DNA of 64,000 nt from Caldisericaceae bacterium (GCA_049967855.1 JBMFRX010000003.1:1-64000), one strand, 5' to 3'. Positions 416 to 42,718 are shown, numbered from the stretch's first letter. The notes: a model not told the origin generated them from the sequence alone. A program made the numbers and translations.

Positions 416-492
416 TGGTGGGCCTCTCTGGACTCGAACCAGAGACCTCGTCCTTATCAGGGACGCGCTCTAACCAACTGAGCTAGAAGCCC
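416..492 (-). tRNA. tRNA-Ile(GAT)
   Basis: Reverse complement GGGCTTCTAGCTCAGTTGGTTAGAGCGCGTCCCTGATAAGGGACGAGGTCTCTGGTTCGAGTCCAGAGAGGCCCACCA; GAT anticodon, encoded CCA. Confidence 0.97.
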
Positions 493-12770: not shown

Positions 12771-15007
<2,237 letters not shown>

Positions 15008-26728: not shown

Positions 26729-27571
26729 TTAACGAGCAGTTTCTGTACCTTCCGAAAAAGAAGAATCCATCACCTTTAAAAAAGAACTAATCCACTCTTT
26801 TGTTCTTGAGAGCATATCTCTGGTAGCCTGTTCATCCATCAGCATTTGAATATCTTCATCAATGTACCTGCTCATTTCCTCTTGGAAATATTTTACAGAA
26901 TTGTCGCTGTCCAAGTTCTCGACTCTAAACTTGATTACTTTTAAAAAACTATCGTAACTAATCTTATAAGATAAAATTTTATTTTTTACAAGATCAGTAT
27001 CTATAGGTATTTGCATTTCCATAAGCCAAAAGATATCCCACACATCTCTTGCCTTAAATGGCGTTTTTTCTCGCAAAGGTCTATTTCCCATTGCAATAAT
27101 TTTATCAGCAAGAATTTCTCTTTTTTCTTCCACGTTAATAAGTACTGAAAGACTGTCGTATTTGCTCTTCGTGGAACTCACTACCCGTGTAAAAGCAGGA
27201 ATACCTTCTGCAATTTCAAGTTCCACATCTATTTTTTTTACATCTTTTTTATCTGGATACACAGAAACATCAAAGGTATGCATTATACTGTCTTCTCTAT
27301 GACGATATTTAACCTCTACTCTATTAGAAAATAGCTTTGCAATGCCTTTTTTAAGAGTATTGACAATTTCATCGGGATTAAACATTATCTTTTTTGACAC
27401 AAAATCCAGGTCATCAGAAAACCTATGCCCTCCGTAGCAAAACCTTAGCGCATTGCCGCCTTGAAAGGTGACGTAAGGAGCAAAAGAAGGAATCTTTGAT
27501 ACAATACTCAAAATTACAATTGCAAGCAGTTCTTTTTCCTCTTTTCTCCTATCAAAATTAACGCTTCTCAT
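26729..27571 (-). CDS. abiEii: AbiEii/AbiGii family nucleotidyltransferase toxin (type IV TA)
   Basis: FQGGNALRFCYG.HRFSDDLDF, EILADKI.A...R, KARDVWDI. Confidence 0.92.
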   Translation of the reverse strand: MRSVNFDRRKEEKELLAIVILSIVSKIPSFAPYVTFQGGNALRFCYGGHRFSDDLDFVSKKIMFNPDEIVNTLKKGIAKLFSNRVEVKYRHREDSIMHTFDVSVYPDKKDVKKIDVELEIAEGIPAFTRVVSSTKSKYDSLSVLINVEEKREILADKIIAMGNRPLREKTPFKARDVWDIFWLMEMQIPIDTDLVKNKILSYKISYDSFLKVIKFRVENLDSDNSVKYFQEEMSRYIDEDIQMLMDEQATRDMLSRTKEWISSFLKVMDSSFSEGTETAR

Positions 27572-28100
27572 ATAAACCCTCCTTCTCTTCTATAAGGTCA
27601 AGAAGATACTCCAATTTGTGGATTTTTGCATCGTAAAGCACCCTCTCTTTATCAGCCACATAAATACCTCTTTCTTTATCAAAATGGATGCCCTTCATAC
27701 TTTTCTTCTGTTTGACAAAAGAAACATTCATACCCAAAGTAGTAACATAAAATTTGCTCAATCCATTTGTTGTAACAAAAGTCATTACATTGGGGGTTTG
27801 CGAAATCAAGCCAAGCTCAAATGCCCTGTAATCAAGAGATAAATAGAAGAACTCCAATTGCCTTACTTTCTTTACAAATTCAATAAGAATTCTTTCTTTG
27901 CTCTCGTCCAAAAAAGGATTAATGTAGAAATTATAAGTAAGTTTCTTGACAACTCCGCTATTAACAAAACGAGACATCTCAGATATAATACTGTTTCTGT
28001 CTTCCTCAGCAAAACGTATGTGAATGTCGTTAAGCGAAAGAACGTAAATGTTCTCCTTTTGCAAGTACTTCATATAATCAAGAAGCTCTTTTAGAGTCAT
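27558..28100 (-). CDS. abiEi: AbiEi family antitoxin / transcriptional regulator
   Basis: N-terminal wHTH-like region, YLSL.....GLISQ.P...TFVTT, VA..ER.LYD; overlaps the toxin start. Confidence 0.82.
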   Translation of the reverse strand: MTLKELLDYMKYLQKENIYVLSLNDIHIRFAEEDRNSIISEMSRFVNSGVVKKLTYNFYINPFLDESKERILIEFVKKVRQLEFFYLSLDYRAFELGLISQTPNVMTFVTTNGLSKFYVTTLGMNVSFVKQKKSMKGIHFDKERGIYVADKERVLYDAKIHKLEYLLDLIEEKEGLYEKR

Positions 28101-28160: not shown

Positions 28161-28728
28161 CAATCAACTTTTTTACTTTCTATATCATTTCAGCAATTAT
28201 CCGTTATAATCTTCTCGTATCTCAATTAATATCTTTTTCTCATCGTCTTTTTTCAACAGATTTGTTTTCTCCCTTTTAGCAGAACAATCACCTGTCGAAT
28301 TTTGACAGCTAGATTTCTCAACTTGCCAGTAGAATACATTCCAAAATGTACAAAAGCCGCTTAAATTTCAACAAACAATTCCTCAAATATACAGAATATC
28401 TAAGGAAAAGTCGCATATCTACAAGCGCCAAAAAAACCTAATTGCAAGGTCCAAAAAATAAAACATTGACAAAGCTAATATTCTTTAGCAATTGCTTTCA
28501 AAAACAAATTCGCTCGGAACAATTTCGTATAGAGTCGTTTAAAAAAAGATTATAGATTACGGAAGGATAAATTTAAATGAGGCAACCAGATAATATTTCG
28601 TAGAAGTACAAAAACGGCAATTAGAAGAGATTAGAGAATTACGTGAGGCAACACGGACTCATAAAAAAGCACAAAAAATTTAAACACTTTGTGAAGAAAT
28701 GTAGTATAATATGAAAAGGAGGCGCACA

Positions 28729-29517
28729 ATGAAAATAAGGGAGCCTGCAGTAGAAGGAACATTCTACCCTTCTGACAGAGAAGAGCTGAGATTAATGTTA
28801 AGGCATTATATTGAGAATGCAAGCCTTGTTGAAATGCAGAACCTGAAAGGCCTTGTTGCTCCTCATGCGGGTTATGTCTATTCTGGCGCTATCGCGGGGG
28901 CAAGTTACAGGCAACTTATCAACCTTGACCTTGCAAAGTTGTACAAAGTAATTATACTCGGGCCATCTCATTACGAGTACTTCAACGGAGCTTCAGTTGG
29001 TATCTTCGATGCCTACAAAACACCTCTTGGGCTTGCAAATGTATCCAAAATTGCATCTTTGCTAATCAAAGAGGATAATTTTCACTTCCTCCTGGATGCA
29101 CATATTGAAGAGCATTCCATTGAAGTGCAGATACCATTCTTACAGTATGTTCTTCCGCATTTTGAGATTGTGCCGATTTTATTGGGCGAAGTCTCATATA
29201 CTCAAGTTGCAGACGTCCTCAAGAAGTATATTGACGAGACGACCATTGTCATTGCAAGCTCTGATTTGAGCCACTACTATCCCTATGAGAAGGCAACGAA
29301 AATCGACAAACACTGCACGAGTGGTATCGAAAAACTGAGCTTTGCGGAGTTCAACAAGTGTGAAGCATGCGGCAAAACTGGCATACAGACACTTCTCAAG
29401 TTGTCTCTCGATTTAGGTTGGAAAAGCAAGGTCATAATGTATGCTAATAGTGGAGACACTGCTGGTCCAAAGGACAGAGTCGTTGGATACGGCTCCTATG
29501 CATTTTACAAAGAATAG
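28729..29517 (+). CDS. amrB: AmmeMemoRadiSam system protein B (MEMO1 family)
   Basis: IREPAVEGTFYP, PHAGYVYSG, LGPSH, EHSIEVQIPFLQ, SSDLSHY, EACG, NSGD...VVGY. Start at ATG 28729 after SD AGGAGG. Confidence 0.95.
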   Translation: MKIREPAVEGTFYPSDREELRLMLRHYIENASLVEMQNLKGLVAPHAGYVYSGAIAGASYRQLINLDLAKLYKVIILGPSHYEYFNGASVGIFDAYKTPLGLANVSKIASLLIKEDNFHFLLDAHIEEHSIEVQIPFLQYVLPHFEIVPILLGEVSYTQVADVLKKYIDETTIVIASSDLSHYYPYEKATKIDKHCTSGIEKLSFAEFNKCEACGKTGIQTLLKLSLDLGWKSKVIMYANSGDTAGPKDRVVGYGSYAFYKE

Positions 29518-30096
29518 ATGGAAGCCAAACAAAAAGAGTTTTTGCTATCAGTTGCAAGGAGTGCTATAAAAGATTTCCTTACTTCAAGGAAAGTGCATCA
29601 CTTCAAAAGCGATGAACTCGAAGACAAAACACTGTTTGAAAGGCGAGCATGTTTTGTAACGCTTACAATTCACGGAGAGCTCAGAGGATGCATCGGCAGC
29701 CTGTTGCCAAGACAACCGCTAATTAACGACGTAGTTGACAATGCCATAAATGCCGCTTTCAGAGACCCACGTTTTTATCCGCTGACTCTTGCAGAACTGA
29801 ACCAGGCAAATATAGAAATATCTGTCTTGAGTATTCCTGAGAAATTGGATTATCAAAACAAGAAAGACCTGTTACAAAAGATTCGGCCAAACATTGACGG
29901 AGTGATTATCAGAAAAGGATTCTATGAAGCGACATTCCTTCCCCAGGTCTGGTCAGAACTTAGAGATAAGGAAAGCTTCTTTGAGAATTTGTGCTTAAAG
30001 GCAGGCTTGGACAGAAATTGTATCGACTCCTGCGACGTTACAGTGGAAACATATCAGGTAGAGGCATTCTCCGAAAACGAAACCGCTCAACCTTAG
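29518..30096 (+). CDS. amrA: AmmeMemoRadiSam system protein A (AMMECR1 family)
   Basis: ACFVTL...GELRGCIG, AAFRDPRF, IEISVLS, ATFLPQVW, LCLKAG. Confidence 0.95.
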   Translation: MEAKQKEFLLSVARSAIKDFLTSRKVHHFKSDELEDKTLFERRACFVTLTIHGELRGCIGSLLPRQPLINDVVDNAINAAFRDPRFYPLTLAELNQANIEISVLSIPEKLDYQNKKDLLQKIRPNIDGVIIRKGFYEATFLPQVWSELRDKESFFENLCLKAGLDRNCIDSCDVTVETYQVEAFSENETAQP

Positions 30097-31331: not shown

Positions 31332-32735
31332 TTAGCAATCATAATAGAGTTCAATTTCATAGGGACTAACCCTTAAATTGACGGCTCTATCTTCGCCCTG
31401 CTTTGTTTTTATCCAGGAATCCAGTAGTTGTTCAGAAAATACCCCGTCTCTAATAAGGAATTTATTATCATTCTTGAGGCTATCAAGCGCTTCAATCAAA
31501 GACCCAGGAAGCAACATTGCGCTTTCTTCACTGTCCCACTTGAGGGCAACAGGGTCAACTGCATTCTCGATTCCATCAATTCCTGCAAGAAGCATCGCAG
31601 ACATCGAAAGATAAATGTTCCCTGTAGCATCAGGAGGCCTAAATTCCATTCTTTTTTCATTAGGTAGTGTAGCATAAGCTGGAATTCTGATAGCCGCTTT
31701 CCTGTTTGACAAAGAAAAAAAAGCTTTTATTGGGGCTTCAAAACCTGGAGTAAGTCTCTTATAGGAATTTGTTGAAGGGTTGGTTAAACCCATTATGGCA
31801 CGCGAATGCTGCAAAATACCAGCAATATATGAAAGTGCAACAGCAGAAAGCTCACCGTAAGGTGCATCCTTTTCAAAAAATACTGGTGAATCCACGTTGA
31901 GTAGCAGTTGATGAAAATGCATTCCAGACCCTGCTTCACTAAAAAGAGGTTTCGGCATAAAGGTCACTGTGAGATTGTTGTTAAAGGCAGCCATTTTTGC
32001 AAAATACTTGACAAGTTGCCCTGTATCTCCTGCTTCCAGCAAGTCAGTCATCTGAACCTCAATCTCTACCTGACCAGCGCCTCCACCTTCGTGGTGATGA
32101 TATTTGACGTCAACTCCTGCATTTTCAAGCAGTATTGAAAGGTCAGACCTGAAATTGAAGAGATGGTCCTTTGGCGGTATGGCGTGATACCCTCTGCCTT
32201 TTGCAATTGGGTACCCAAGATTATCCTCATCCGCCCTTGTGGAGTTCCAATGAGCCTCATCAGAATCAACTTCATAGTAAGATATGTTCTCAGAATTCTT
32301 GAAGTTAACGCTATTAAAAACATAGAATTCATATTCAGGTCCCCAGAGACTTCTCGTTGCATATTTCTTACCAGCAAGAAGTTTTTGCGCATTGGTTGCC
32401 ACACCTCGAGAATCCAGAGCAAATGGCTCTTTTGATGATATATTATGGACACTGCCAAAAAAAGAGAGAGTTTTAACCTTAAAGAAAGGGTCGACAAATC
32501 CTGCTTTCATATCAGGAATAAGGACCATATCGCTCTTTTCTATCGAAGCGAACCCAGGTATAGAAGAACCATCAATTCCAATCCCTTCAGAGATTGTTGC
32601 TTCAGAAAACCTTGATGCAGGAATAGTTATGTGGTGCAATCCACCAAACAGATTTGTAAATTTTACATCCACCTGGTCGATGCCATTCTGCAGGATAAAA
32701 TTCTGCGCCTCTTTTAAGTTTTCAAACTTCAACAT
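31332..32735 (-). CDS. glnA: Type I glutamine synthetase
   Basis: DGSSIPGF, GPEYEFY, HHHE, TFMPKP, GSGMHFH, NSYKRL.PGFEAP, NR.AAIRIP, EFRPPD, ELYYD. Confidence 0.95.
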   Translation of the reverse strand: MLKFENLKEAQNFILQNGIDQVDVKFTNLFGGLHHITIPASRFSEATISEGIGIDGSSIPGFASIEKSDMVLIPDMKAGFVDPFFKVKTLSFFGSVHNISSKEPFALDSRGVATNAQKLLAGKKYATRSLWGPEYEFYVFNSVNFKNSENISYYEVDSDEAHWNSTRADEDNLGYPIAKGRGYHAIPPKDHLFNFRSDLSILLENAGVDVKYHHHEGGGAGQVEIEVQMTDLLEAGDTGQLVKYFAKMAAFNNNLTVTFMPKPLFSEAGSGMHFHQLLLNVDSPVFFEKDAPYGELSAVALSYIAGILQHSRAIMGLTNPSTNSYKRLTPGFEAPIKAFFSLSNRKAAIRIPAYATLPNEKRMEFRPPDATGNIYLSMSAMLLAGIDGIENAVDPVALKWDSEESAMLLPGSLIEALDSLKNDNKFLIRDGVFSEQLLDSWIKTKQGEDRAVNLRVSPYEIELYYDC

Positions 32736-32830
32736 CTTAGCCTCCTAAAGTTCTGTAGGTAGTTTATTGTACTAAATTTCTAACTTTATGCAACTTGTAA
32801 AACTTTTTAAAAAATTCTCCCGTTTTCCTC

Positions 32831-32858
32831 TTGACACAAAACTTTTTTTCATTATACT
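32831..32858 (+). promoter_or_regulatory. sigma70 promoter with no downstream ORF (drives the sRNA candidate)
   Basis: TTGACA (32831-32836), 16 nt, TATACT (32853-32858). Confidence 0.75.
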
Positions 32859-32864
32859 ACTCAA

Positions 32865-32960
32865 CATAGTAAGTGCAGGCTTTCACCACCGAACAGCCTG
32901 ATACCTACCTCCTTTCTTATTCATGCCAGGGAGGGTGTCCCCATCACCTTCCCTTCTTTT
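32865..32960 (+). ncRNA. Candidate small regulatory RNA with exposed anti-SD motif
   Basis: Promoter, CAGGCT/AGCCTG hairpin, single-stranded ACCTCCTTTCT, then terminator AGGGAGGGTG/CACCTTCCCT + TCTTTT; no ORF. Confidence 0.6.
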
Positions 32961-34686
32961 ATTTATAATTCTTGAATTGTGTAGTGTAAAGCTCATAGTA
33001 CAAACCCTTTCGCCTCATAAGCTCTGAATGTTTCCCTTGCTCTACTATTCTGCCTTTGTTTATAACGTAAATTTTGTTTGCATCGCGAATGGTTGACAAT
33101 CTGTGGGCAATAACAACAGAAGTTCTCCCTTCCATAATTGTCTTAATCCCCTTCTCAATAAGTTCTTCCGTATTAGTGTCTATCGAAGCAGTTGCTTCAT
33201 CGAGGATAAGTATTTTAGGATTGTATATTAGAGCTCTCACAAACGAAATGAGCTGCCTCTCTCCAAAAGAAATGTTCTTGCCCTCGCTTATAAGCTCAGT
33301 ATCATAGCCCTTCTCAAGCTTCATTATCAAATCGTGGACGCCAAGCTTCTTGCAGGCATCTATAATAGATTCATCGGAGAAATCTTCTCTTCCTAAGGTG
33401 ATATTTTCTCTTACGGTTCCTCTAAAAATGAATATGCTTTGCTGGACAATCGCCATATTCTGTCTCAGTTTTGTCTTGTTAATCTCCTTAATATCAATAC
33501 CATCAAACTCGACATTCCCGCTGTTCACACTGTAGAAGCCAAGTATTAGATTTGCTATGGTGGATTTGCCAGCACCAGTAAAGCCAACTATCGCCGCTTT
33601 TTCGCCACGTTTAATCTCCATTGAAACATCGTTTAAGACATTCTCTGTTCCATTGTAGGAAAACGCAACACTTCTGAGCATAATATCGCCTTTTATTTCA
33701 AGGTCTGTTATCCCTTCTTTGTCTTCAACTTTGTTTTCGTTTACGAAGTCACCAATCTTGCTCATAGATGCAAAAGCGTTCTGAAGGATGGAGAATTTGT
33801 CTGATAGGTCTCCCAACGGGCCGTACAATTGGTTTAGATATGACAAAAAAGCAAGCAAAGTTCCAATTGTGGTTTTGCCATTTATGACAAGCAAACCTCC
33901 AAAAATAATCAGAAGAAAATTTGAAATGTAAGAAACAAGATTTATAAACTGCCTCAAAACAGTATTAAGCATCTGTGACTGATAGAATCGCACTTTAAAC
34001 TCATCGGCGTGTTTTGCAAAAACATTCCTGTGATGTTCTTCATCATTAAAGCTCTGAAGTATTGTTAGTCCGCTCAGGCTCTCCTGCATATGAATATTAA
34101 TTTTAGTAAGAGCATCTCTGACTTGCTCAAACACGTGTTCAATTTTATCACCAAGAACCAGTGACACTACTACTGCAACAGGCAGCGGAGAAGTTGCTAT
34201 AAGGGCAAGTCTTGGATTCAAATAGAACAAAAATCCGATTGCAAAAACAACAAACAGCACATCACCCAACAGAGAAATAAGGCCAGAATTTAAAAGGTCG
34301 TTCATATTCTCAACATCGTTGGTTATTCTTGTTATTATTTTCCCTGACGGTTCCTTTGTAAAGACATCCACCTCGAAATTCTCCATAGTCTTAAAGAGGT
34401 CTTTTCGCAAGTCCTTCATTATGTTTTGCCCGGCAAGGTTGCCAACGTAGATTTGAAGAAGCCTTGCAAGGTAAAGCAAAACAATCGTGGCCACCAAAAT
34501 CTCTGAGTAGTAAAACAGTTTTTGGAGACTTTTGGTTGTTGTAATATCATCAATTGCCTTTTTTGAAAGCAACGGGATGAAAGAGGAAAGAGCAGAAGCA
34601 ATAATAAGAGCAACAAATGCAATTATTATCTGCCACTTGTATTTCTTAAAGTAGGGAACAAACTTTTCCAAATACTTGCCTCTCAT
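32959..34686 (-). CDS. ABC exporter, fused TMD-NBD (heterodimer subunit)
   Basis: GFTGAGKST, ISFGERQ (degenerate signature), ILDEATA, IAHRLSTI. Confidence 0.93.
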   Translation of the reverse strand: MRGKYLEKFVPYFKKYKWQIIIAFVALIIASALSSFIPLLSKKAIDDITTTKSLQKLFYYSEILVATIVLLYLARLLQIYVGNLAGQNIMKDLRKDLFKTMENFEVDVFTKEPSGKIITRITNDVENMNDLLNSGLISLLGDVLFVVFAIGFLFYLNPRLALIATSPLPVAVVVSLVLGDKIEHVFEQVRDALTKINIHMQESLSGLTILQSFNDEEHHRNVFAKHADEFKVRFYQSQMLNTVLRQFINLVSYISNFLLIIFGGLLVINGKTTIGTLLAFLSYLNQLYGPLGDLSDKFSILQNAFASMSKIGDFVNENKVEDKEGITDLEIKGDIMLRSVAFSYNGTENVLNDVSMEIKRGEKAAIVGFTGAGKSTIANLILGFYSVNSGNVEFDGIDIKEINKTKLRQNMAIVQQSIFIFRGTVRENITLGREDFSDESIIDACKKLGVHDLIMKLEKGYDTELISEGKNISFGERQLISFVRALIYNPKILILDEATASIDTNTEELIEKGIKTIMEGRTSVVIAHRLSTIRDANKIYVINKGRIVEQGKHSELMRRKGLYYELYTTQFKNYK

Positions 34687-40834: not shown

Positions 40835-42492
40835 AGATAGTCCTTTCTGCTATTCAGAGAATCTATTAGCAAAAAAGCTAATAAACTCATTATTAGCAGT
40901 ATTGTGCCGAATGCCTGCGCTGCTCCAAAATGCCTTCCCGACATTAGTCGGTACAATGCAATAGGTATTGTTGTATTTTCACTCCGGAACAGCATCAACG
41001 TTGCGCCAAACTCACCCATCGAAATCGCAAATGCAAAAGTTGCAGCTGAGACCAACGGCTTTTTTATGAGGTCTATGTCAACCGTGAAAAACGTTTTAAA
41101 TTTGCTAAGCCCAAGACTCCTTGCAACAAGTGAAAAATCAGTCGAGGTTGATTCTACAACTGGCATAATAGACCTCAAGACAAATGGAAACGCAATCAAC
41201 GTATGGGAAATTGCAATAAATATCCAGTTAAAGGGAGAGCTGTTTATGAAAGGCTGAAATGTGACAATGTAAGAGAGAGCTATTGTTAATGGTGATAACA
41301 CAATTGAAAACATCAAAAATGGCAACACATACTTCTTCAGGTTTGTATGCAATTTAAGGTAATAAGCAGATGGAATGGCAAGCCCTATAGATAAACAAAC
41401 CGTAATAAGACCAAAATAAACACTATTCAAAATCACCCTGCCCGACGAAACTCCAGTAATATAATTATAAGTTCCTTCAAAAATCTGTTTAAAATTTGAA
41501 AGGCTGAGTCCTGGGGAACCACTGGCTACAAAAGAGCTCAACACAATTACAATCATTGGAGCAACTATCAAGAGAAAAACGAAAATCAAATAGCTGAAGG
41601 AAAGAGAAAAAGAGAGTCTGCTCCATTTTTGTTTAGTGTAAGAAAACGTCCTTTTTACAATCCCGACGCCCGACAAACCTTCGGCTCGAAGGTAAATCAA
41701 TACGAAAATCACAAGAATAAGCGCCTGAATAATAGCAAGAACGCTTCCTGTTCTGAAATCTGAAAAAGTGTTGTAGTACATATAAATGGCAACTTCCGTA
41801 GTGGCAAAACCTGCTCCACCGATAGTCATAATTATTACGAAGCTCAGGAAACAGAAGATGAAGACAAGCGAAAAACTTGATAAAACAGAAGGCAAAAGAA
41901 GCGGAAGTGTTACCGCAAAAAAAGTTCTTACCTTAGATGCCCCAAGACTTTTGGCAACATAGGAATATTCCTCAGAGATACCATCCCAGGACGAGCCAAC
42001 AATCCTTAGAGCAATTGGAAAGTTGTAAAAAGAATGAACAAGAATAATTCCAGTAAAAGAGTAAAGAAGATGTATATCAACGTTTCTTCCAAATATATAT
42101 GATAAAGCGTTATTTAAGATACCGTTTCTGCCGAATAAGACAATGAACCCCAGTCCAACTAGTACGGATGGAAGAACAAACGGCACGGTCGAAAGCGACA
42201 TTAAGAAGCTCTTGAACCTGAAATTGTAATGAGAAACAATGTACGCCCCAGGCAATCCTATAAGCACCGTAACAAATGCGCTTACAAAAGCTTCTTTAAA
42301 GGTAAAATAGAGCACGCGAAGAGTATAAGAATCAGTAACGATGCTAAGAAACGAAGAAAAATTAAAGCGACCCCCTGTGCTAAAAGCAACTTTTACAAGA
42401 GTAAGAATCGGAAAAAAAAGAAAAAAACAAATGAACAACACTGGCACAAAAATCAGAGCAAAGCCGTCAAAAAATTTCTTTATCTTATCCAA
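40831..42492 (-). CDS. thiP: Thiamine ABC transporter permease (duplicated TMD)
   Basis: Two EAA-like loops (AKSLGAS, ARSLGLS), SMGEFGAT; TTG start directly after the TPP riboswitch. Confidence 0.87.
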   Translation of the reverse strand: MDKIKKFFDGFALIFVPVLFICFFLFFPILTLVKVAFSTGGRFNFSSFLSIVTDSYTLRVLYFTFKEAFVSAFVTVLIGLPGAYIVSHYNFRFKSFLMSLSTVPFVLPSVLVGLGFIVLFGRNGILNNALSYIFGRNVDIHLLYSFTGIILVHSFYNFPIALRIVGSSWDGISEEYSYVAKSLGASKVRTFFAVTLPLLLPSVLSSFSLVFIFCFLSFVIIMTIGGAGFATTEVAIYMYYNTFSDFRTGSVLAIIQALILVIFVLIYLRAEGLSGVGIVKRTFSYTKQKWSRLSFSLSFSYLIFVFLLIVAPMIVIVLSSFVASGSPGLSLSNFKQIFEGTYNYITGVSSGRVILNSVYFGLITVCLSIGLAIPSAYYLKLHTNLKKYVLPFLMFSIVLSPLTIALSYIVTFQPFINSSPFNWIFIAISHTLIAFPFVLRSIMPVVESTSTDFSLVARSLGLSKFKTFFTVDIDLIKKPLVSAATFAFAISMGEFGATLMLFRSENTTIPIALYRLMSGRHFGAAQAFGTILLIMSLLAFLLIDSLNSRKDYL

Positions 42493-42497
42493 ATTAT

Positions 42498-42593
42498 TCC
42501 TCCCTTCGGTAGGATTACCTACATCAGGTTCAATGGGTTGAAGTTTCAGACTTCTCTCAGCCTACTTACGAACAGCTTTCAGCACCCCTGAAC
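42498..42593 (-). ncRNA. TPP riboswitch
   Basis: Reverse complement AGGGGTGC...GGCTGAGA...ACCC.TTGAACCTGAT GTAGG TAAT CCTAC CGAAGGGA matches the THI-box consensus; extended -10 TGCTATAAT at about 42600-42608. Confidence 0.93.
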
Positions 42594-42627
42594 AAACATA
42601 TTATAGCATAAGCAACAATTTTTAAAA

Positions 42628-42718
42628 TGGCGGAGAGAGTGGGATTTGAACCCACGGCAGGCGATTAACCCGCACACGCTCTCCAGGCGTGCACCTTAAA
42701 CCACTCGGTCACCTCTCC
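42628..42718 (-). tRNA. tRNA-Ser(GGA)
   Basis: Reverse complement GGAGAGGTGACCGAGTGGTTTAAGGTGCACGCCTGGAGAGCGTG...long variable arm...GGTTCAAATCCCACTCTCTCCGCCA. Confidence 0.97.

Follow-up and report, generated by a model that had tools for sequence, protein, structure and literature searches.

The gap between a glutamine synthetase gene and an ABC exporter gene in a Caldisericaceae genome very probably holds a real RNA gene, whose product would be a stand-alone small RNA. The near-invariant core of this RNA carries an anti-Shine-Dalgarno (anti-SD) stretch and is complementary, above chance, to the leaders of unlinked mRNAs, namely those of an aminotransferase, a dehydrogenase operon and tdh, and the RNA probably represses such amino-acid catabolic leaders in trans by base pairing. 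On our best reading it would be an Hfq-independent trans-acting repressor, like RsaE and AbcR in action, that forms a new family. Coordinates are listed in Table 1, where the window is the whole 64-kb stretch of DNA that was analyzed.

Table 1. Features of the predicted RNA gene, its neighbors and the rest of the 64-kb window.
Feature	Position	Strand	Remarks
Sigma70-type promoter TTGACA-16-TATACT	32831..32858	+	TTGACA 32831-32836, TATACT 32853-32858
Predicted small RNA, ~97 nt	32864..32961	+	Ends inferred from promoter and terminator
5' hairpin	32869..32908	+	Upper stem 32876-32900, CAGGCT-TTC/GAA-C-AGCCTG, loop ACCACC
Near-invariant 28-nt core	32901..32928	+	Predicted target-pairing region
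Intrinsic terminator	32928..32960	+	10-pair stem 32928-32954, then U-tract on + strand only
glnA, type I glutamine synthetase, divergent neighbor	31332..32735	-	TIGR00653 over cut-off
ABC exporter subunit, convergent neighbor, one of an ABC exporter pair	32959..34686	-	
AmmeMemoRadiSam proteins B and A	28711-30096	+	
SDH-family Clp-fold serine proteinase-like ORF, 499 aa	24568-26067	-	Below cut-off
TPP riboswitch	42483-42599	-	
Three tRNA genes	42631-42718, 338-409, 419-492	-	

A preliminary description of this DNA had pointed to a promoter, a hairpin, an anti-SD stretch and a terminator, and each of these elements was found where it had been placed. Among 10 promoter-like sites in 32000-34000, TTGACA-16-TATACT scores best (11 of 12 matches), and its spacer is unremarkable here, as near-consensus promoters of the source genome have a 16-nt spacer at 23 sites and a 17-nt spacer at 11. 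A promoter this close to consensus suggests that the RNA would be strongly expressed. Folding adds a weaker lower stem (32869-32875/32902-32908) to the 5' hairpin and predicts core positions 32909-32927 to be unpaired at both 37 and 65 °C; 11 core nucleotides (32907-32917) are identical to the 16S 3' tail of the same genome. Folding of the + strand reaches -31.8 kcal/mol (z -4.68), a value equaled by none of 200 shuffles, and the - strand has a z of -2.19 that 6 of 200 shuffles equal. The gap had been described as free of ORFs, which stands insofar as only short chance ORFs of 25-41 aa were found in it, with the correction that the stop codon of the ABC exporter gene (32959-32961, - strand) falls within the U-tract of the RNA, so that the 3' end of the ABC mRNA may overlap the RNA in antisense. 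As a separate observation, the promoter region (32804-32849) shares 85% identity over ~45 nt with G000:C1:29779-29822 of the same genome, which is a promoter located ~1.7 kb before the 16S 3' end.

Conservation and covariation support the ~95-nt + strand RNA proposed earlier, now predicted at ~97 nt. A BLAST search with the element matched 22 of 61 genomes at E <= 0.01, of which 17, the source genome included, matched at full strength (E < 1e-16) and five matched only in promoter, terminator or chance pieces. A covariance model (R1) was built from the 17 full-strength sequences and places one copy in each of 17 of the 26 family genomes, spread over 8 of 10 genera; the 17 are the training sequences and match by construction, as does the source-genome RNA with its E of 2.9e-20. 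All 17 homologs have a TTGAC(N)-16/17-TATA(A/C)T promoter 36-43 nt upstream of the core (spacer 16 nt in 15, 17 nt in 2), and promoter, hairpin, core and terminator are present in 13 of 13 metagenome matches. The 5' leader has a column identity of 0.63, the hairpin 0.86, the core 0.996 and the terminator 0.91. Among the 17 sequences, 26 of the 28 core columns are invariant, and the two variants are each C-to-U changes that retain pairing through G-U. The hairpins and the anti-SD core are thus kept throughout the 17 genomes, and 6 of 19 stem pairs show two-sided changes (5 of 10 in the upper stem), a number reached by none of 500 shuffles and by slid controls only up to 3, in a kind of test that relatedness inflates. 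The terminator stem is paired in 98.5% of alignment cells, and its G-U variants are compatible with the + strand only, which, with the one-sided U-tract, bears out the earlier view that the terminator suits a + strand transcript. The homologs differ by 1-2-nt indels and vary in the sequence of the hairpin loop, and a peptide-coding reading was rejected because such indels would shift the frame. By eye, no conserved operator was evident upstream of the promoter.

An exact-core scan of a species-genome collection returned 15 stretches, 14 of them in Caldisericum, Caldisericaceae, Caldisericales or Caldiserica, and the family label Caldisericaceae rests on these taxon names. The sole match outside Caldiserica (L092) was rejected, as it stands without a hairpin-terminator context. 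Among 67 genomes of the phylum outside the family, R1 gave five weak matches (E 5e-4 to 0.024), all of which were viewed and taken as chance. One of these (L136) lies inside a pheS-like ORF. Another, L134:1501-1586 in G087, from another class of the phylum (E 5e-4), is a core-like stretch immediately followed by a strong terminator; the final part of a small membrane ORF overlaps it, a search with it in five related genomes gave a best E of 0.015, and it is treated as chance, being either that or a 3'-UTR relic.

No Rfam 15 covariance model, those of RsaE, GcvB and alpha-r15/AbcR among them, reached its gathering threshold on the element (best 12.1 bits against a threshold of 58.6, E 3.5), in line with the earlier remark that it was not recognized as SRP RNA, 6S RNA, tmRNA or a riboswitch, and none matched the RNA at five metagenome homolog loci. 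Its sequence signals are those of a trans-encoded sRNA: it has a promoter and an intrinsic terminator to itself, lacks a conserved ORF, and has a covarying structure that exposes a conserved unpaired seed. A role as a type I antitoxin found no support: the neighbors across loci are ABC, MFS, glnA or lipoprotein-like genes, and the best-paired leaders, in scans of ORFs of 70 aa or more, precede metabolic enzymes. Elsewhere in the window, an AbiEi-family antitoxin-like ORF (26729-28100, - strand; NF047376, below cut-off) lies beside a 280-aa ORF that has no NCBIfam match and that we take to resemble an AbiEii-type nucleotidyltransferase; the two are a probable type IV toxin-antitoxin pair.

The single copy and changing neighbors of the RNA support its reading as a stand-alone gene. 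In 14 of 17 genomes an ABC homolog falls inside the ~3-kb locus, and an MFS gene lies in the locus in 5 of 17 and also beyond glnA in the source genome. It is very unlikely that the element serves this ABC(-MFS) locus in cis, as an antisense RNA or as a transcription block against read-through from the convergent ABC gene. Such a role would agree with the frequency of ABC in the locus, with the gene order of genus g8 (ABC, RNA in antisense, MFS), with the direct adjacency of ABC and MFS in G002, and with the - strand at the ABC end, where no terminator-like site was found. However, a + strand gene separates the RNA from ABC in five genomes (G003, G005, G006, G013, and G018), an arrangement that also assigns the terminator to the + strand transcript; ABC is not in view in three others (G009, G011, where the contig is short, and G017); and a cis-antisense RNA needs no invariant core.

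The divergent glnA had been proposed as the target of the RNA, an idea that now seems extremely improbable. glnA does flank the RNA in two of 17 loci (the source genome, G000, and G001, both of genus g1), lies ~4 kb away in G009 and G016, where we noted a close glnA, and has a precedent in the glnA antisense RNA of Clostridium saccharobutylicum P262, which the portion of the literature consulted describes as transcribed downstream of glnA and regulating it (PMC3025663). As far as that portion goes, the two cases share a small RNA encoded beside glnA; the Caldisericaceae RNA, in contrast, is upstream and divergent, adjoins glnA in just those two loci, and shows no predicted glnA pairing beyond the SD. 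When the core was scanned with RNAduplex against positions -45..+10 of 1301 crudely called genes of the source genome, the glnA leader ranked 715 at -13.0 kcal/mol, near the mean of -13.8, and its net energy with opening costs is -3.5 to -4.1. Six glnA orthologues from RNA-bearing genomes pair no further than the SD (55 of 300 shuffles as good), and a search of the 26 family genomes recovered a close orthologue in only 7. The close glnA type is patchy in the family, most genomes of which carry a distant glutamine-synthetase-like paralogue of 35-40% identity.

The leaders that do pair with the core lie elsewhere in the genome. A search for homologs of the element led to a PLP aminotransferase gene; in G008, G015, and G020, a run of 21-22 nt in its leader, downstream of the -10 box and ahead of the start codon, complements the core perfectly. 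The closest solved relatives of the enzyme are Thermococcales-type multiple-substrate and alpha-aminoadipate aminotransferases, and we take it to be of the LysN/MsAT type. An orthologue was found in 24 of 26 family genomes, and its leaders, taken from 16 genomes that carry the RNA, are short and predicted to pair at -18 to -39 kcal/mol (-38.7 in G008). A strict search for the promoter-plus-leader pattern returned only aminotransferase leaders and one other gene, in G002. The second target is the first gene (alpha) of a sarcosine-oxidase/proline-dehydrogenase-type operon with ferredoxin and small subunits; PH1363 is presumably a proline dehydrogenase. The third is tdh.

To compare these leaders with chance, the first 17 nt of the core, with the anti-SD, were kept and the last 14 shuffled, and the genus-averaged energy against orthologue leaders was scored. 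The resulting counts are not probabilities, because related genomes are not independent; the targets were also chosen from the same genomes as tested. For the aminotransferase, the real core gave -28.0 against -21.7+-1.1 kcal/mol (0 of 1000 shuffles as good; 16 genomes, 8 genera), for the dehydrogenase alpha gene -26.6 against -19.8+-1.2 (0 of 500; 16 genomes, 8 genera), and for tdh -27.5 against -23.4+-1.2 (0 of 300; 13 genomes, 6 genera, the source-genome copy being dropped as its start is cut by the contig end). In a calibration on the 679 of 1015 reciprocal orthologue pairs with agreeing starts, z averaged 0.08 (sd 1.01) and 15 pairs stood at 0 of 45 shuffles; a mean so near zero indicates that the real core does not generally outperform shuffled ones. 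The aminotransferase excess (-24.0) beats all 679 pairs, and the next largest are those of the dehydrogenase (-15.8) and gdhA (-13.3). Pairing beyond the SD of this kind supports the earlier proposal of a trans-acting, anti-SD translational repressor.

Genome-wide ranks, which depend on gene starts from a crude caller with some wrong calls, are consistent with such targets. Of 1301 source-genome leaders, the aminotransferase ranks 1, a gabT-like gene 3, the dehydrogenase 5, gdhA 8 and hutU 16; of 1499 in G008, the dehydrogenase ranks 1, a beta-aspartyl-peptidase/asparaginase 2, iorA 3, gdhA 4, tdh 7 and hutU 9, the aminotransferase being missing because its gene spans a piece edge. Ranks 5, 6 and 8 in G008 go to ligA, a surface protein and formate dehydrogenase alpha, the first two named from sequence and not by family assignment. 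When the cost of opening the sites is included, those of G008 stay strong (aminotransferase -31.2, asparaginase -30.3, gdhA -23.0). The source genome gives a more moderate result: gabT leads at -22.9, and neither the aminotransferase (-11.5 to -15.7) nor the dehydrogenase (-14.8 to -16.5) is among the best 15 of the 120 sites rescored.

The high rank of strong-SD genes unrelated to amino acids, such as ligA and surface proteins in G008, would also be expected of a general mimic of the 16S tail, one that competes for strong SDs throughout the genome or that associates with a protein handling that tail, with the extra leader matches secondary. The 11-nt identity with the 16S 3' tail points the same way, as does a 28-nt invariant core that exceeds what a few targets may need. 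Yet the invariance extends 11 nt past the 16S match, the added part pairs with catabolic leaders above shuffles, and ordinary genes show no excess, and we regard a general mimic as unlikely.

Support for other leaders is graded. gdhA and hutU are weaker candidate targets: for gdhA, 5 of 300 shuffles are as good across 12 genomes, the signal being driven by genera g8 and g1, and a second GDH clade gives 0 of 300 in six genomes with less certain starts; single-genome shuffles for hutU, a class V aminotransferase and gcvT (13, 17, and 11 of 60) are not significant. gabT (43 of 500 shuffles; 15 genomes, after a distant match in G010 and a cut leader in G001 were dropped), iorA (276 of 300; 4 genomes of 5 searched) and asparaginase (204 of 300; 3 of 5) were rejected as family-wide targets and are at most lineage-specific candidates. 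An apparent excess at a pstB-like gene was set aside, as it is due to an extended -10 box inside the scanned leader segment. Within the window itself, a sulfide/dihydroorotate-dehydrogenase-like FAD/NAD-binding gene (14174-15007, - strand) shows excess pairing in the source genome and G008 (0 of 45 shuffles; ranks 32 and 12, respectively) and is a further candidate.

The position of the complementary motif within target leaders bears on how the RNA would act. In three gdhA leaders (L345 in G022, L348 in G018, and L351 in G012), a TGGCATG-like or TTGG motif directly follows the -10 box and precedes the SD by 30-45 nt, where a scan starting at -45 partly misses it; these leaders suggest a two-part pairing, at the 5' end and at the SD. 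A more specific proposal is that the RNA is a 5'-end-anchored guide, whose core reads a TGGCATGAA-type motif at +1 plus the SD, so as to catch mRNAs as they emerge at the promoter, possibly aided by a protein, and that whole leaders evolved into near-perfect complements; we put this forward tentatively, as rather unlikely. It is quite unlikely that the same targets are regulated with opposite or mixed sign, by 5'-end pairing that shields the mRNAs from 5'-end-dependent decay and so stabilizes or stores them. In numerous leaders of the aminotransferase and the dehydrogenase, the complementary motif starts within ~4-6 nt of the -10 box, and in the gdhA leader of G022 it occupies the 5' end, ~40 nt away from the SD, as shielding would have it. 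Most predicted duplexes, however, include the SD and would block initiation, RNase III is present, and the 5' ends are themselves read from sequence.

Several family genomes contain no recognizable RNA. The RNA was found in none of the six genomes of genus g7 (G007, G014, G019, G021, G023, and G025; completeness 75-99%), and their aminotransferase leaders pair at just -12 to -18 kcal/mol with no extra pairing (980 of 1000 shuffles as good). Some extra pairing does persist in the dehydrogenase leaders of g7 despite the absence of the RNA (11 of 500). With the queries used, close gdhA and tdh were not found in any of the six. A laxer model search for a diverged RNA in g7, G002, and G010 gave a best E of 0.16; the ABC gene is directly followed by another gene in G007 and G014, and the G010 contig ends there. 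A search in g7 for an RNA complementary to its own aminotransferase leader found only that leader, another leader and a coding stretch. G002 (99% complete, with 572 bases withheld) has a near-perfect aminotransferase leader (-37.5 kcal/mol), and no RNA was found in it by BLAST, pattern or model, with nothing lying between its ABC and MFS genes. G012 (77% complete) resembles it in having a target-like leader and no RNA found. For G002, loss of the RNA, its relocation to a withheld or unassembled stretch, or a protein-based reading of the motif may be the explanation.

The last of these touches on a wider alternative, in which the motif is a DNA operator or protein-binding site common to catabolic promoters and the RNA locus, with no RNA-RNA pairing. 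Its persistence in G002 and its place just downstream of -10 boxes, a position used by repressors, fit an operator. We nevertheless consider this highly improbable: the motif is non-palindromic and runs on into the SD, it always lies in antisense orientation inside a promoter-hairpin-terminator unit, and leader variants often retain pairing via G-U. Compensatory change between RNA and target cannot be shown because the core hardly varies.

Known regulators offer partial parallels to the proposed repressor. GcvB of enterobacteria is a single conserved sRNA that governs an amino-acid regulon; it is Hfq-dependent, ~200 nt long and has a G/U-rich seed, in contrast to the C/U-rich anti-SD core of the Caldisericaceae RNA, which has no Rfam match. 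In the part of the literature drawn on here, RsaE/RoxS of Staphylococcaceae and Bacillaceae is described as down-regulating amino-acid catabolism (rocF, gcvT, ald2), with a reported RNase III association, and as carrying its C-rich 10-nt motif in duplicate, in a loop and again between stems (PMC6158497). On that partial account, both are short stand-alone RNAs with a C-rich unpaired motif between stems and pairing to the SD, but the Caldisericaceae RNA has one 28-nt core in place of two motifs, again with no Rfam match. Its predicted duplexes, of up to 22 perfect pairs, also reach the inferred mRNA 5' end, and the phylum and enzymes are different. For AbcR1/AbcR2 and NfeR1 of alpha-rhizobia, the sections consulted describe single-stranded anti-SD motifs with 8-nt seeds that repress many metabolic mRNAs at the RBS, the confirmed targets being mostly ABC uptake proteins (PMC8844928). 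By contrast with these, as so described, the Caldisericaceae RNA has enzymes of catabolism as its top predicted targets, shows no sequence match to them, and comes from a family in which none of 5 genomes searched yielded Hfq.

Together, these observations lead us to hypothesize the following sequence of events for a trans-acting repressor. The RNA would be transcribed from its own promoter, and the 3' half of its core would pair with the first nucleotides of the target mRNA, at a TGG(C/T)ATG-like motif 4-6 nt past the target -10 box, with the 5' half pairing with the SD. Pairing would block 30S loading, and the unaided 15-25-bp duplex, from the presumed mRNA 5' end through the SD, may be turned over by RNase III without Hfq. 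A search for Hfq (PF17209) found it in 0 of 5 family genomes and in 5 of 14 control genomes, and RNase III was found in all five family genomes searched. From family labels and general knowledge, we take the supported targets to act in transamination, proline/sarcosine and threonine oxidation, and glutamate deamination. Since enzymes of this kind channel amino acids toward breakdown, damping of amino-acid catabolism is the likely effect of the RNA, one that strong expression would bring about.

In a search of the literature on Caldisericum or Caldiserica together with small or noncoding RNA, no such description was found, and subscription journals or the supplements of RNA-motif screens could hold one. 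If the proposed role is correct, a little-studied phylum gains a regulatory RNA with a named regulon, and the idea embodied by RsaE and GcvB, one RNA damping amino-acid catabolism, would have arisen independently in a lineage whose searched genomes yielded no Hfq. The predicted duplexes are unusually long for pairing in trans, which makes the claim directly testable and bears on how Hfq-less bacteria gain specificity with an anti-SD seed. Were the 5'-anchored form of pairing to hold as well, a regulon would be controlled in trans by antisense-length pairing that needs no chaperone, an arrangement that suits a lineage of thermophiles.
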